This document shows, piece by piece, positions 4,932-55,327 of a DNA stretch of 64,000 nucleotides. This stretch comes from Promethearchaeia archaeon (GTDB lineage Archaea > Asgardarchaeota > Lokiarchaeia > Sigyniarchaeales > SOKP01), in assembly GCA_029856105.1 (NCBI GenBank), contig JAHQWH010000189.1, positions 32,001 to 96,000 of the forward strand, written 5' to 3'. The translations under genes were made by a program, and so were the position numbers. The notes beneath the pieces are model-generated. The model made no database searches and was not told the origin of the DNA. It saw only the letters and a list, made by a program, of their open reading frames with translations. Numbering within the stretch: the first letter of the stretch is position 1; each line of letters begins with the position of its first letter.

Positions 4932-4987
4932 TTTTACCAGATTCTTTAAGCAGTATTATTATTATAGATTAAACACTAATTAAAATT

Positions 4988-5650
4988 ATGCATGGCATTG
5001 ATAAAATATTTATTGAAACTAATGAAATTAGGCTTGAAGCCGAGTTTTTTCAGTTGAAAAACTCGGTTGTTTTAATTTGTCACCCACATCCTCAATTTTT
5101 CTGGGTTTGAAACCCTAAAAAGGGAAAATATGGGGGCAATATGTACAACAATGTCGTATCTGGCGTTTTTAATATGTGTGTTCAAAATAAAATTTCATGT
5201 TTACGGTTTAATTTCAGGGGAGTAGGAAGTTCAACAGGAAGTCATACTAGTGGAAAGGGCGAGTTAAGCGATGTGGAAGCTTGTATTGATTTTTTAATAA
5301 CCGAGAAAAATATTGAAAAAATAATAATTTGTGGTTATTCCTACGGCGCTGCTATCGGGTGTTCTGTTGTAAATTTTTCTAAGAAAATAATTGGTTATTG
5401 TGCAATTTCTTTTCCTTGGGATTTTATGGGCTCAAAATATAAAAAACTTTCTCAAACTAAAAAACCAAAATTGTTTATTCAAGGGAATCGAGATACTATA
5501 GCACTCTATGAAAATTTTGAAAACCATTATAATTTCTATTTCGAACCAAAAAAGTATAATATTATTAATGGAGCCGACCACTTTTACTCGGGATTTGAAG
5601 AAAATGTCGCACAAGAAGTAAGCGAATTCTACAATTCGATTACAAAATAA
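4988..5650 (+). CDS. Alpha/beta hydrolase, spliced: join(4988..5094,5128..5650), 209 aa
   Basis: ATG 4988 gives MHGIDKIFIETNEIRLEAEFFQLKNSVVLICHPHPQ; removing 5095-5127 yields the family motif HPHPQYGGNMYNNVV; downstream RFNFRGVG.S.G, GYSYGA nucleophile, QG..D and GADHF. Confidence 0.88.
5095..5127 (+). other. Candidate 33-nt bulge-helix-bulge mRNA intron
   Basis: Central helix UCCU(5089-92):GGGA(5122-25), bulges CAA(5093-95) and AAA(5126-28), inner helix UUUUU:AAAAA capped by a GGGUU/AACCC hairpin, outer helix CCCA.A:U.UGGG; contains in-frame TGA at 5108-5110. Confidence 0.85.
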
Positions 5651-5704: not shown

Positions 5705-6103
5705 TTAAATGGAAGATAACTTTTCTAAATCTGGTCTAGCATTTTCAACCGCCCAATCGAGGAGTTGGTCGTAATAAGATTCAATTTCATTAGATTCCGG
5801 ATTTTTTGATAGTACCGCTAAAATGAATTGCGTTTTTTTATCTGACATAATTATATTTCGACAAATAATAAAATCTTCTGAATATTTAATCTTTATACTA
5901 GAAAGTAAAGATAAATTCATCTCCTCAGACGCGTTTGATGCAGCATCACTTAATAATGAGCCCATGGCTGCAACAACCCGCTCATCAATGTCTTCTGATT
6001 TTTGCGATGCTAAAACTAATCCTGCATTTGTAGCAAGAAGAGAAGCCCTAAAATTACCATTATCATTTAATTCTTTGAGAACTTGGTCAAGTCTGCTTAC
6101 CAT
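5705..6103 (-). CDS. Roadblock/LC7 domain protein
   Basis: ASLLAT..GLVLAS....DE..VAAM roadblock pattern, 132 aa. Confidence 0.8.
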   Translation of the reverse strand: MVSRLDQVLKELNDNGNFRASLLATNAGLVLASQKSEDIDERVVAAMGSLLSDAASNASEEMNLSLLSSIKIKYSEDFIICRNIIMSDKKTQFILAVLSKNPESNEIESYYDQLLDWAVENARPDLEKLSSI

Positions 6104-6204
6104 AAGAAATATTCACTCATTAAGTATTATAAACAATTTTATAAAAATTCTCTCTTAACTTTGATATTATAAATATTATGAACAATTTAGTATTAAATTT
6201 TACC

Positions 6205-6729
6205 TTATGTCTTTTTTATGTTTATTACAAATGTGGATAAAATATTATCTTCGTCAATCTTTAACGTTATTACGCTTGGCCTCGCTATAGGTTTTTCAAA
6301 GCCTCTTTTTGGAATAGGTGCTTTAGGTTTTGTAGGACTTCCCGGATTAATTAATAAAGTATTGTAAGGTGTACCTGCTATGAGTGGCTGATGTGTATGT
6401 CCAAAAATAAGGATGTGGAGGTTATTTCGCTTAAAAAAGTCTTCTAAATTATCAGGTTTCTTGTGAATTACACCAATGTTATAATTTTCAACATGGAATT
6501 TAATAAATGTCTCTAATCCCGTTATTTCATCTAAATCGCTTTTTACGCATCTAACTGGAGCGATATTTTTCAAATCTTCTAAAAAAAAAGGTTCACATAC
6601 ATCTCCAGCATGTATGATTTCGTCAACATCTTCGAAGGCTTCTTTTAATTGATTAATTAAAGTTTCAACTAGATTAGGTTCGTCGTTCTTTGTTATGTGA
6701 GTATCTGAAATTATCCCTAATTTTACCAT
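6205..6729 (-). CDS. YfcE/Vps29-like metallophosphoesterase
   Basis: ISDTH, HAGD, GHTH.P, INPGS motifs; the usual GN motif is replaced by SD. Confidence 0.85.
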   Translation of the reverse strand: MVKLGIISDTHITKNDEPNLVETLINQLKEAFEDVDEIIHAGDVCEPFFLEDLKNIAPVRCVKSDLDEITGLETFIKFHVENYNIGVIHKKPDNLEDFFKRNNLHILIFGHTHQPLIAGTPYNTLLINPGSPTKPKAPIPKRGFEKPIARPSVITLKIDEDNILSTFVINIKKT

Positions 6730-6741
6730 TTTTTTTCTTTG

Positions 6742-7812
6742 CTATAATATAATTACTCCAATAGTAAAAATAATCAAACCGAATAAAAAATCCATCATTA
6801 TCCTAACAATTTTTTTAAACCAATTCTCTCCGATCTCATTATCATTTTTGAAATATGAAAAAAATTCTTTAAAACCTATTGATAAAATTTCTTTGATTCG
6901 AGAGAATTGCCAAACAAACAAAAATATACTAATAACTAATAATGGAACATAAACAATGAAGCTCATTAATGAAAAATCGTTACCGTGTATAAAATTCCAA
7001 ATTGAATGGGCAGAAATAATATTATTTACTGCATGAGCAAAAATTACTGGAAATATCCAACGTCGTCTTAAAACCAGCATCGCAAGAATAATTCCTACTA
7101 AAAAAGTCTGTAAAAACCAAATAATAGGAAAAATTATTGGTAACCCGATACCAGGTATCGCAAAAATATAATTAAAATGTCCTAAACCAAAAAAAAAGGA
7201 AGTAACAATTACGGCAGACATTTTTTTAAAGTAAACACTTCCTCTATTAGCTAAAAAACCTCTAACTAATGTTTCCTCATATATAGCGACAGAAATTTGT
7301 ATTATAATAACAGATAGAAGAAACACGTAATAACTCTCCATAAAGTAAGAGTTGTAAGATAATTCATCCGTAGGGTTTATAACTATGGACGAATAAGATA
7401 GCATTTCAGGTAAAAATAAATACCCAAAAAAATCTAACGGTATAAAAATTAAAAAAAGTAATAATATCCCATATAAAAGCTGATATTTAAAATTCTTTTT
7501 TGTAATATTAAATAAAGATAAAAAGTTCTTTGAAGGGCTGACATCCTCTTCTAAAATTAATTTTTTTCTTTGAGGCACCATTATAAAATTGGATAAATAT
7601 AGAAATAAAGGAATCGCAACGATAATAATTGCCGCTCTCACTATAAAAAAAAGAGGTTCAAAAATTATAGATTCAAAATCAATAAAGAAAGGTAGTAGAA
7701 AAGTAGGAATTAACATAAAAATAAAGATTCCAAGAAAAATAATTAGAACTTCGAAGAAATAATATATTCGTTGATTAAATATTGTTTTTAAAGGGTTTTT
7801 AGGTCTTCTCAT
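6742..7812 (-). CDS. CPBP (CAAX/Abi) intramembrane metalloprotease
   Basis: Multiple TM segments; EE...RG, FG..H and H...N motifs. Confidence 0.88.
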   Translation of the reverse strand: MRRPKNPLKTIFNQRIYYFFEVLIIFLGIFIFMLIPTFLLPFFIDFESIIFEPLFFIVRAAIIIVAIPLFLYLSNFIMVPQRKKLILEEDVSPSKNFLSLFNITKKNFKYQLLYGILLLFLIFIPLDFFGYLFLPEMLSYSSIVINPTDELSYNSYFMESYYVFLLSVIIIQISVAIYEETLVRGFLANRGSVYFKKMSAVIVTSFFFGLGHFNYIFAIPGIGLPIIFPIIWFLQTFLVGIILAMLVLRRRWIFPVIFAHAVNNIISAHSIWNFIHGNDFSLMSFIVYVPLLVISIFLFVWQFSRIKEILSIGFKEFFSYFKNDNEIGENWFKKIVRIMMDFLFGLIIFTIGVIIL

Positions 7813-42013: not shown

Positions 42014-42627
42014 ATGGGAAGGAGAAAAAGAAAGCAACAATCTTATAAAAGAGTCAAAACAGTCCCCAAAATTTTTACTTGCCCAAACAGGTAATTATGG
42101 TTTTCCCATTTACCTTGGATTGTGGGGAAAAGGCAATAAAAGTAGAAAATTTACGAAAAAGTGTTATAGCTACAGTGAAATGTGGTCATTGTGGTTTAAC
42201 AAAGGAAGTTCTGGTTAATTCCATATCAGAACCTGTTGATGCTTTTGGAGATTTTATTGATATTCATTATGCTGATCAAGAACTTCAGAGATTAGAAAAA
42301 CGCATTGAGAAATTAATAAAACAAAACGAATGGGGGGAACTTGCATTATCCTACTCAATTTTATCGGATATTTGTAAACTTAAAGTTGTTCAAGCTTTAG
42401 AAGACGAAGATAAAGTAGATCTTGATGAGGTTAATAAATGGAAAATTAAAGTTGAAGAATATAAAAGGCTTGAAAAAGATGCTCTACTTCAATTAGACAC
42501 GCTTGAATTGGAAAAGGGTATTAGAACAGACGACGAATCTTTATTTTCAGAGCACGATGAGAGTGATATGAAAAAAGAAAAGAAAATTGAAGATATCTTT
42601 GACGATCCTGGTTTTCTTGAATTTTAA
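42014..42627 (+). CDS. elf1: Transcription elongation factor Elf1, spliced: join(42014..42088,42121..42627), 193 aa
   Basis: Exon 1 MGRRKRKQQSYKRVKTVPKIFTCPN + exon 2 CGEKAIKV...VKCGHCGL...EPVDAFGDFID gives the Elf1 basic N-terminus, Zn ribbon and helix; unspliced exon 1 stops at TAA 42092-42094. Confidence 0.9.
42089..42120 (+). other. Candidate 32-nt bulge-helix-bulge mRNA intron
   Basis: Central helix CCAA(42083-86):UUGG(42115-18), bulges ACA(42087-89) and AUU(42119-21), inner helices GGUAA:UUACC and AUGG:CCAU, outer helix CUUGC:GUGGG. Confidence 0.88.
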
Positions 42628-53854: not shown

Positions 53855-55327
53855 ATGAATGTAATTAAGATTGATGAGAACATTTACGAAATACCGCCAA
53901 AAACTTTAATGGCGCGTGTAGAAGGCAAAATCGCGAAGTTTCAAATGAAAGTGCCGGTACATATTTATGCGAACGAGTACATATTGGAAAAGATCAAGAA
54001 CGACAGAACGCTTGATCAGATTAGCAACGTTGCTTGTCTTCCAGGAATACAGAAGCATGCAATTGCGCTCTCCGATGCTCATCAAGGATATGGATTTTGT
54101 ATAGGGGGTGTTGCTGGAACTGACGCCGAATCGGGTATGATTTCGCCGGGGGGTGTAGGATACGATATTAATTGTGGTGTAAGGTTATTAAGGACAAACC
54201 TTCACCTTAAAGACATCAATAGCTCAATTCCCAGTTTATTAAATGTTATTTTTAAGAATATACCATCAGGTTTAGGAAGTAAAGGTAAATTAAATATAAG
54301 TTATTCAGATTTAGATAATGTATTAGATAATGGTTTGAATTGGGCTTTAGAAAATGGTTATGCGATTGAAGAGGATATATTGCACTGTGAAGAAAACGGT
54401 TTTTTAAAGGATGCTAATTCAAAAGTGGTTTCCCAGAAAGCTAAGCAGAGGGGGTTAAAGCAACTTGGTTCTTTAGGAAGTGGCAATCATTTTATAGAAA
54501 TCCAGAAGGTTGATAAAATCTACAATGATTCTATCGCAAAAAAATTAGGAATTTTTGATAAGGATCAAATAACAGTTATGGTTCATACAGGGTCGCGAGC
54601 TCTTGGTCATCAAGTATGCACCGATTCTTTACGAAATGTCGAACAGGCAATGAAAAAATACGATATCAAAGTTCCTGATCGCGAATTAGCTTGTGTACCA
54701 GCTGATACTCCCGAAGCAAAAAATTATTTAAGTAGCATGGCGTCTGCTGCAAATTTTGGGTTCAACAACCGTCAATTAATTACCCATTGGTTAAGACAAT
54801 CTTTTCAAGATTATTTTAGAAAGAGTTTAGACGAGCTAGACTTTAAATTAATTTATGGTGTATGTCATAATATTTTAAAAATAGAGGAACACGAAGTTAA
54901 TGGTAAAAAAATGAAATTAAATGTTCATAGAAAAGGAGCAACCAGAGCTTTTCCACCAGGACACCGAGATCTACCGCAAGATTATAAAAATATTGGTCAA
55001 CCAGCTTTGATTCCTGGTACTATGGGATCAGCTTCCTACTTATGCGTTGGAAGGCCAAAAGCGATGGATCTTTCTTTTGGATCCACCGCTCATGGATCTG
55101 GTAGAGTAATGTCAAGATCCAAAGCTAAAAAAATATATTGGGGTTCTAAAGTTAAAGAAGATTTAAAAAATAGAGGAATAATTGTTAAAGCTGCTTCACC
55201 TAAAATAATTGCTGAGGAAGCTCCAGGGGCATACAAAGATATAGATCAAGTAGTACAAGTAAGTCAAGACCTTGGAATCATAGAAAAAATTGTAAGGTTA
55301 ATCCCAATAGGGGTTGTAAAAGGTTAA
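53855..55327 (+). CDS. rtcB: RNA-splicing ligase RtcB
   Basis: DAHQGYGF.IGG, GVGYDINCG, LGSGNHF.E, HTGSR, HN, HRKGATR, PG.MG..S, HG.GR, EEAP.AYK; ATG 53855. Confidence 0.97.
   Translation: MNVIKIDENIYEIPPKTLMARVEGKIAKFQMKVPVHIYANEYILEKIKNDRTLDQISNVACLPGIQKHAIALSDAHQGYGFCIGGVAGTDAESGMISPGGVGYDINCGVRLLRTNLHLKDINSSIPSLLNVIFKNIPSGLGSKGKLNISYSDLDNVLDNGLNWALENGYAIEEDILHCEENGFLKDANSKVVSQKAKQRGLKQLGSLGSGNHFIEIQKVDKIYNDSIAKKLGIFDKDQITVMVHTGSRALGHQVCTDSLRNVEQAMKKYDIKVPDRELACVPADTPEAKNYLSSMASAANFGFNNRQLITHWLRQSFQDYFRKSLDELDFKLIYGVCHNILKIEEHEVNGKKMKLNVHRKGATRAFPPGHRDLPQDYKNIGQPALIPGTMGSASYLCVGRPKAMDLSFGSTAHGSGRVMSRSKAKKIYWGSKVKEDLKNRGIIVKAASPKIIAEEAPGAYKDIDQVVQVSQDLGIIEKIVRLIPIGVVKG

Follow-up and report, generated by a model that had tools for sequence, protein, structure and literature searches.

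A predicted bulge-helix-bulge intron in the coding region of an alpha/beta hydrolase gene of a Promethearchaeia archaeon

In eukaryotes, splicing of the HAC1/XBP1 mRNA by IRE1 and RtcB proceeds independently of the spliceosome, at paired stem-loop sites, and is regulated by stress. Among the archaea, a bulge-helix-bulge (BHB) intron in the pre-mRNA of the crenarchaeal cbf5 gene was reportedly described by Watanabe in 2002. The intron of cbf5, which encodes a pseudouridine synthase, lies in the coding region and is known from Crenarchaeota (Yokobori 2009, PMC2738675); it is the only example stated as reported for coding mRNA, to which a case in a 5' untranslated region (5'UTR) of Haloferax has been added (PMC7714728). 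A literature search for BHB introns in protein-coding mRNA of Asgard or Loki archaea found no report. Here we analyse a stretch of 64,000 nucleotides (nt) from a Promethearchaeia archaeon (GenBank assembly GCA_029856105.1, contig JAHQWH010000189.1, positions 32,001 to 96,000 of the forward strand), hereafter called the window, which is part of a 3.66-Mb metagenome-assembled genome, 92% complete, of the Promethearchaeota (Lokiarchaeia-type). Positions 5095-5127 of the window probably represent an archaeal BHB intron, spliced from the mRNA, in the coding region of a COG2945-type alpha/beta hydrolase gene, and we put the probability of this reading at about 0.88.

The frame that opens at ATG 4988 runs through ...VVLICHPHPQ, FFWV, TGA, NPKKGK and YGGNMYNNVV..., exactly as a preliminary description of this DNA had read it, with 11 extra codons between CHPHPQ and YGGNM, an in-frame TGA at 5108-5110 and the stop codon of the gene at 5648-5650. 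Canonical cuts after 5094 and 5127, which the same description had placed there, remove 5095-5127 and leave CA/A UAU GGG (the slash marks the junction), restoring the motif HPHPQYGGNM. The predicted spliced junction consists of ...CACATCCTCA joined to ATATGGGGGC..., and the gene is divided as follows.

4988-5094, plus strand: exon 1, with the ATG, 35 codons (M...CHPHP) and then the CA of a Gln codon, as given by the translation
5095-5127, plus strand: predicted 33-nt BHB intron with the in-frame TGA at 5108-5110, delimited by fold and covariation; single-copy in the genome
5128-5650, plus strand: exon 2, which completes the Gln codon with its third base and continues with 173 codons (YGGNM...ITK) and a stop codon

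According to the preliminary description, the list of open reading frames (ORFs) contained only a truncated product of 169 amino acids (aa). That ORF is indeed listed (5141-5650), and a 40-aa ORF (4988-5110) is listed as well. Exon 2 carries the GYSYG sequence, the Asp of QGNRD and the His of GADHF, and matches Pfam Abhydrolase_11 (PF20408) and Abhydrolase_1. Once the 33 nt are removed, the gene has what is expected of a COG2945-type hydrolase, that is, the HPHPxxGGxM loop, the GxSxG nucleophile, the Asp and the His. An intronless ortholog (P0008) aligns to the structures 3TRD (E = 1.2e-29), 2I3D and 2FUK of the PDB, and its loop, ICHPHPQYGGNM, aligns without gaps to ICHPHPLHGGTM of 3TRD. Because the PDB homologues align gap-free across the loop, the 33 nt interrupt a segment that is conserved from bacteria to archaea.

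Comparison with orthologs, which the preliminary description had proposed as a check, carries most of the argument. With exon 2 as the query, 41 relatives were searched first and 135 genomes of the family after them, and the DNA of 59 loci was read. An insert is present at exactly this codon in 30 of the 59 ortholog loci, and the uninterrupted relatives show the junction that had been predicted. Orthologs from outside the family but within the order, eight in total, are all uninterrupted, as are many within the family, and these genes read HPHP-Q/L-[Y/F]GG. The inserts fall into two types: 27 are of a type that we call g1 (33, 32, 31 or 30 nt), and three, from another genus, are of a type that we call g21 (30 nt). 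Stops within the inserts may be TGA, TAA or TAG, and five of the 30 inserts are not multiples of three, which places exons 1 and 2 in different frames. Cutting by BHB geometry alone nevertheless yields HPHP-Q-[Y/F]GG in 30 of 30, including the five frame-shifting inserts, with E in place of Q in one (locus L041, where the codon is GAA and bulge 1 begins with G). Bulge 2 of the g1-type orthologs always has A or G as its third base, which would take the wobble position of the Gln codon and give CAA or CAG.

Both exons are open and conserved in every insert-bearing ortholog, down to about 60% protein identity. Exon 1 starts with ATG in all 30, spans 34-39 codons and keeps a conserved LEAE...CHPHP pattern, while exon 2 is stop-free over 170-177 codons in all 29 genes that are complete, L059 being truncated by the end of its contig. 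This conservation bears on the possibility that insertion of the 33 nt disabled the gene and that these lineages carry the hydrolase only as a pseudogene, as could be suggested by the in-frame stop and by annotation pipelines, which call only the truncated product of 168-179 aa. An ATG-started, open and conserved pair of exons in 30 of 30 orthologs is not what a dead gene should show, and neither are an invariant BHB core, a covarying stem and a conserved promoter-like block; this explanation is highly improbable.

Archaeal BHB sites are cut after the second base of each bulge. The structure predicted around the insert is made up of the following elements.

5077-5088, plus strand: 5' strand of the outer helix (UUGUC, a bulged A, CCCACA), an exon-exon pairing supported by folds
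5089-5092, plus strand: exon strand of the central helix (UCCU), paired and unchanged in each of the 23 distinct sequences
5093-5095, plus strand: bulge 1 (CAA), with a predicted 5' cut after A5094 that keeps the frame in every ortholog
5096-5121, plus strand: intron hairpin, with an inner helix 5096-5100/5117-5121 and an apical stem 5103-5107/5111-5115, supported by covariation and folds
5122-5125, plus strand: intron strand of the central helix (GGGA), invariant
5126-5128, plus strand: bulge 2 (AAA), with the predicted 3' cut after A5127; its third base would become the Gln wobble base
5129-5139, plus strand: 3' strand of the outer helix (UAUGGG, GGCAA), supported by folds and alignment

All of the pairs that had been claimed can be formed by the sequence: the 4-bp central helix (U5089-A5125, C5090-G5124, C5091-G5123 and U5092-G5122), the bulges CAA and AAA, each lying 3' of its own strand of the central helix, and the flanking helices, of which the inner one forms five of five pairs (5096-5100 with 5117-5121) and the outer one five of six (5083-5088 with 5129-5134, with one C.A mismatch). 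The outer helix extends further, from 5077-5081 to 5135-5139, and the apical stem of the intron is a 5-bp GGGUU/AACCC hairpin. By nearest-neighbour folding the minimum free energy (MFE) of the segment is -20.3 kcal/mol (z = -2.1), and a fold constrained to the BHB has -19.2 kcal/mol, 1.1 kcal/mol above it. In the 30 orthologs, forcing the BHB costs 0-2.7 kcal/mol relative to the MFE, and no more than 1.3 kcal/mol in 29 of the set; the forced fold of L050 lies 0.4 kcal/mol below its own MFE. A lax BHB rule that is passed by the window site is met by only 6.2e-5 of all (site, length) pairs in the genome, and for this reason a BHB in the exact register that restores the motif is unlikely to have arisen by chance.

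The four central pairs form in 27 of 27 g1-type introns, and only in the phase-2 register. In the three g21-type introns (L050, L052 and L053) the BHB is slid by one base, the central helix is CCUC/GAGG and the phase is 0; two of the three sequences have a mismatch in the central helix. The g21-type sequence is unrelated to that of the g1-type, although it occupies the same site, and its 30 nt form a hairpin of 8-9 bp. It could represent either intron sliding with turnover of the sequence or a replacement of the intron. A congener of the g21-type carriers, L054, has the ordinary intron type.

In order to count base pairs for the BHB structure, 23 distinct g1-type sequences were aligned with MAFFT. 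The central helix and both bulges are invariant in this alignment. Overall, 89.2% of the cells are paired, against at most 68% for 3' partners displaced by one to three columns, and double-sided changes occupy 28 cells, compared with 9.2 expected, eight pairs showing such changes. The covariation score was reached by none of 500 shuffles; the shuffle ignores relatedness, and the slide control, which corrects for it, agrees. The clearest case is the pair of alignment columns 24-43 in the intron stem (CG in nine sequences, UA in nine, UG in five, with no mispair), and the outer-helix pairs 5-61, 6-60, 9-58, 10-57 and 13-54 are standard pairs in 23 of 23 sequences.

A maximum-likelihood tree was built from the spliced protein sequences, and the presence of the intron requires at least six changes of state on it, of which at least three are forced by well-supported branches. 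The intronless locus L011 is nested in an intron-bearing clade with 97-98% support, the intronless L013 is sister to L012/L014, and the intronless L049 is sister to L056. Each of the three carries exactly the junction predicted for the spliced RNA, a pattern that looks like precise loss of the intron.

These losses and the intact exons also bear on a split-gene arrangement, in which translation would start twice, giving a 40-aa peptide and an independent 169-aa protein, and the spacer would never be removed. The two ORFs (4988-5110 and 5141-5650) do exist, and translation of the second could start at the Met of GGNM. That Met, the first residue of the annotated 169-aa ORF, belongs to the family motif in the intronless and the bacterial homologues and is replaced by CTG (Leu) in L003; the conserved HPHPxxGG loop would be severed; a mere spacer would have no need of a BHB whose bulges never vary, or of compensatory changes; and the intronless relatives have exactly the fused sequence. 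We therefore consider separate translation of the two halves very unlikely.

Equally unlikely is translational recoding, in which the ribosome would bypass or read through the insert, as in phage T4 gene 60 or the mitochondrial byp elements. Known bypass elements are similar in size to the 30-33-nt insert, which is likewise a short hairpin with a stop codon, and in one environmental variant (P0144) the insert is an open frame. Against this, the take-off CAA and the landing AAA or AAG are mismatched, and the landing site lies among variable bases while the geometry of the BHB never changes. Inserts of 31 and 32 nt cannot be read through at all, and among the orthologs the inserted residues show no conservation at the protein level.

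The enzymes needed for the removal of a BHB intron are encoded in the genome. Two separate genes, open over about 200 aa, carry a tRNA_int_endo domain (PF01974; 98.5 and 72.3 bits), which is consistent with a two-subunit EndA of broad specificity. Their catalytic domains lie at G000:C107:11230-11454 and G000:C12:9220-9468 in our numbering. The window itself contains the sole RtcB gene of the genome, whose product is presumed to be the enzyme that would join the exons.

54017-55324, plus strand: RtcB RNA ligase gene (PF01139, 558.8 bits; G000:C191:86017-87324 in our numbering of the genome)

A 2026 preprint (10.64898/2026.10.13.758758) reports heavy interruption of Asgard tRNA genes by BHB introns and two EndA paralogs in 44 of 60 genomes. 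Regarding the present genome, ARAGORN found 23 tRNAs in what is a 92%-complete assembly, none of them in the window, and called an intron in 16, intron calls of this kind being unreliable. The low number is consistent with tRNA genes being interrupted to a degree at which standard finders overlook them.

Upstream of the hydrolase gene there is a further conserved element.

4952-4967, plus strand: promoter-like A/T block AGTATTATTATTATAG, conserved in the family and lying some 21-36 nt ahead of the start codon

This block together with TTAATTAAAATT (4952-4987) is nearly identical in intron-bearing and intronless orthologs, and is likely to represent a promoter and short leader, in which 4952-4967 may act as the TATA box and transcription factor B recognition element (TATA/BRE). 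The segment 4952-4987 directly precedes the start codon, within the 56 nt between the hydrolase gene and nadC, which is transcribed divergently.

Taken together, the comparison upholds the intron reading of the preliminary description, through the 30 inserts at the same codon, the covariation, the precise losses, the intact exons and the presence of EndA and RtcB. Several marks of an archaeal intron of the EndA-processed BHB class are found here, namely bulges and central helix, covarying flanking helices, predicted cuts that restore the frame and the host enzymes. From these elements a pathway can be proposed. Transcription would begin from the conserved A/T-rich promoter-like block just upstream of ATG 4988. 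In the pre-mRNA, His and Pro codons of exon 1 would pair with Tyr and Gly codons of exon 2 to form the outer helix, and the last bases of exon 1, UCCU, would pair with the intron bases GGGA as the 4-bp central helix; the remainder of the intron would fold as a hairpin, leaving two 3-nt bulges on opposite strands. EndA, probably as an alpha-beta heterotetramer of the two paralogs, would cut after 5094 and after 5127, and RtcB would ligate the exons to give CA/A UAU GGG. The product would be an enzyme of 209 aa with an intact HPHPQYGGNM loop, and the 33-nt intron would be released, probably as a circle. Unspliced RNA could yield only the 40-aa peptide.

Cleavage by EndA could also occur without productive ligation, the BHB being a processing or decay site by which the mRNA is switched off. 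BHB sites outside tRNA and rRNA can lie in untranslated regions, as does that of the HVO_1309 5'UTR in Haloferax (PMC7714728). Under such a scheme exon 1 would be useless, yet it is conserved along with the promoter-like block; moreover, the cuts restore frame and motif exactly for four intron lengths, losses at the DNA level that are identical to the ligated product point to spliced RNA, and RtcB is present. Cleavage as a mere off-switch is a most unlikely account of the locus.

Several observations weigh against splicing of the insert. In the window the MFE fold is not a BHB, but has symmetric 2x2 loops in place of the two bulges, and the BHB itself includes a U-G pair in the central helix and the C.A mismatch in the outer helix. 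The ratio of nonsynonymous to synonymous change (pN/pS) in exon 1 is about 0.4-0.55, moderately below 1; the modest value reflects the shortness of the exon and a variable linker within it. A spliced junction specific to the clade was not found in metagenome contigs of the Joint Genome Institute (JGI), in which the unspliced junction occurs in 13 contigs, and no product of spliced length was found among the examined members of the 90% cluster of the window protein, which comprises 169-aa ORFs, 44-aa ORFs of exon 1 and one read-through variant of 224 aa. In the environmental variant P0144, TGG replaces TGA, the insert is an open stretch of 11 codons and the protein is annotated with 224 aa. This variant shows that the insert can be an open frame by accident, from which translation of the insert would not follow.

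Other kinds of element can be dismissed briefly. Recoding of the TGA as Sec or Trp is ruled out by orthologs with TAA, TAG or frameshifts at this place; a mobile element, by the single-copy state of the intron and its flanks in the genome, with no endonuclease gene adjacent; and a self-splicing group I/II intron or an intein, by a length of only 30-33 nt with stops or shifts of frame. A search against Rfam gave no match at E <= 1.

The hydrolase gene is not the only coding gene of the window with a BHB insert, since the Elf1 gene has one as well.

42014-42297: Elf1 gene, split by a 32-nt frame-shifting BHB insert at 42089-42120

The insert has a central helix CCAA/UUGG and bulges ACA and AUU. 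Exon 1 of this gene corresponds to positions 1-27 of Pfam PF05129 and exon 2 to positions 28-76, so that the junction is exact. We also scanned the whole genome for BHB motifs whose removal fuses two open frames. The scan gave 30,142 lax BHB matches, of which 892 were restoring. For comparison, shifted cuts yielded 959-1027 such cases, and an equal number of random pairs about 949. Because chance fusions of adjacent genes swamp the signal, the scan does not discriminate and no count of mRNA introns is drawn from it. When ranked by constrained folding energy, it recovered only the hydrolase intron, Elf1 and one strong candidate on contig C10. The latter is a 30-nt BHB (G000:C10:60290-60319; L082:1291-1320) with a GGTG/CATC central helix, bulges AAA and TTT and six of six outer pairs. 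It carries an in-frame stop between an ORF that matches DUF2229 and an ORF with a weak match to the C-terminus of HGD-D, and is probably another mRNA intron. An identical copy at G000:C26:2515-2544 suggests a duplicated assembly. On balance we favour, with some reserve, the view that the hydrolase intron is one of a population of micro-introns, spliced by EndA and RtcB, in ordinary coding genes of Lokiarchaeia-type Asgard archaea.

The neighbours of the hydrolase gene are nadC, a NikR-like gene, a roadblock gene and a metallophosphatase gene. Downstream, within 5705-7812 on the minus strand, a roadblock/LC7 gene and a calcineurin-like (Vps29-like) phosphoesterase gene lie in tandem. Within the hydrolase gene, a terminator scan picked out a 13-bp hairpin with a T-rich tail at 5038-5068, inside exon 1 and just upstream of the BHB; it is not general, as L003-L005 differ in sequence there. 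Exon 1 of the window gene is four codons shorter than in most relatives.

As for annotation, public databases list the intron-bearing hydrolase genes as fragments: in the records P0003, P0004, P0010, P0136 and P0144 they appear mostly as proteins of 168-169 aa, one record is a 179-aa protein that starts inside the intron (MPRKGK...), the TGG variant is entered as a 224-aa read-through, and a 44-aa ORF of its own represents exon 1. The locus offers a well-supported coding-region BHB intron in a metabolic gene unrelated to cbf5, in an Asgard archaeon. Its four lengths, two sequence types and several precise losses form a natural series that makes the gain and loss of archaeal mRNA introns, as well as the substrate rules of EndA, directly testable. 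If such introns are indeed common in Asgard genomes, the lineage of the eukaryotic host would already have coped with interrupted mRNAs without a nucleus.

Among the described systems, the cbf5 intron of Crenarchaeota offers the closest comparison. Both are short BHB introns of the tRNA type in a coding region and presumed substrates of hetero-oligomeric EndA; both are patchy in distribution, with lineage-specific loss, and both make gene finders miss or truncate the gene. The hydrolase intron differs in lying in a metabolic alpha/beta hydrolase of the Promethearchaeota, in having no sequence relationship to that of cbf5, in that its splicing is predicted, and in that its site hosts two sequence types at one codon with the BHB register shifted by one base. 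It would work like the cbf5 intron outside the cbf5 lineage, and is not homologous to it. With the BHB introns of tRNAs, including those of Asgard archaea, it shares the 3-nt bulges, the 4-bp helix, the flanking helices, a length of about 30 nt and the same enzymes; unlike them, it is hosted by an mRNA, its exon-exon helix is built from Pro/His and Tyr/Gly codons, and the frame has to be restored. The HVO_1309 intron of Haloferax volcanii is likewise in an mRNA that is a substrate of the splicing endonuclease, but it lies in an untranslated leader and was shown experimentally (PMC7714728), whereas the hydrolase intron is coding and predicted from sequence. Finally, HAC1/XBP1 splicing by IRE1 and RtcB also concerns a coding mRNA and combines an endonuclease with the RtcB-type ligation proposed for the hydrolase intron, although the nuclease, IRE1, and the recognition motif differ from EndA and the BHB.
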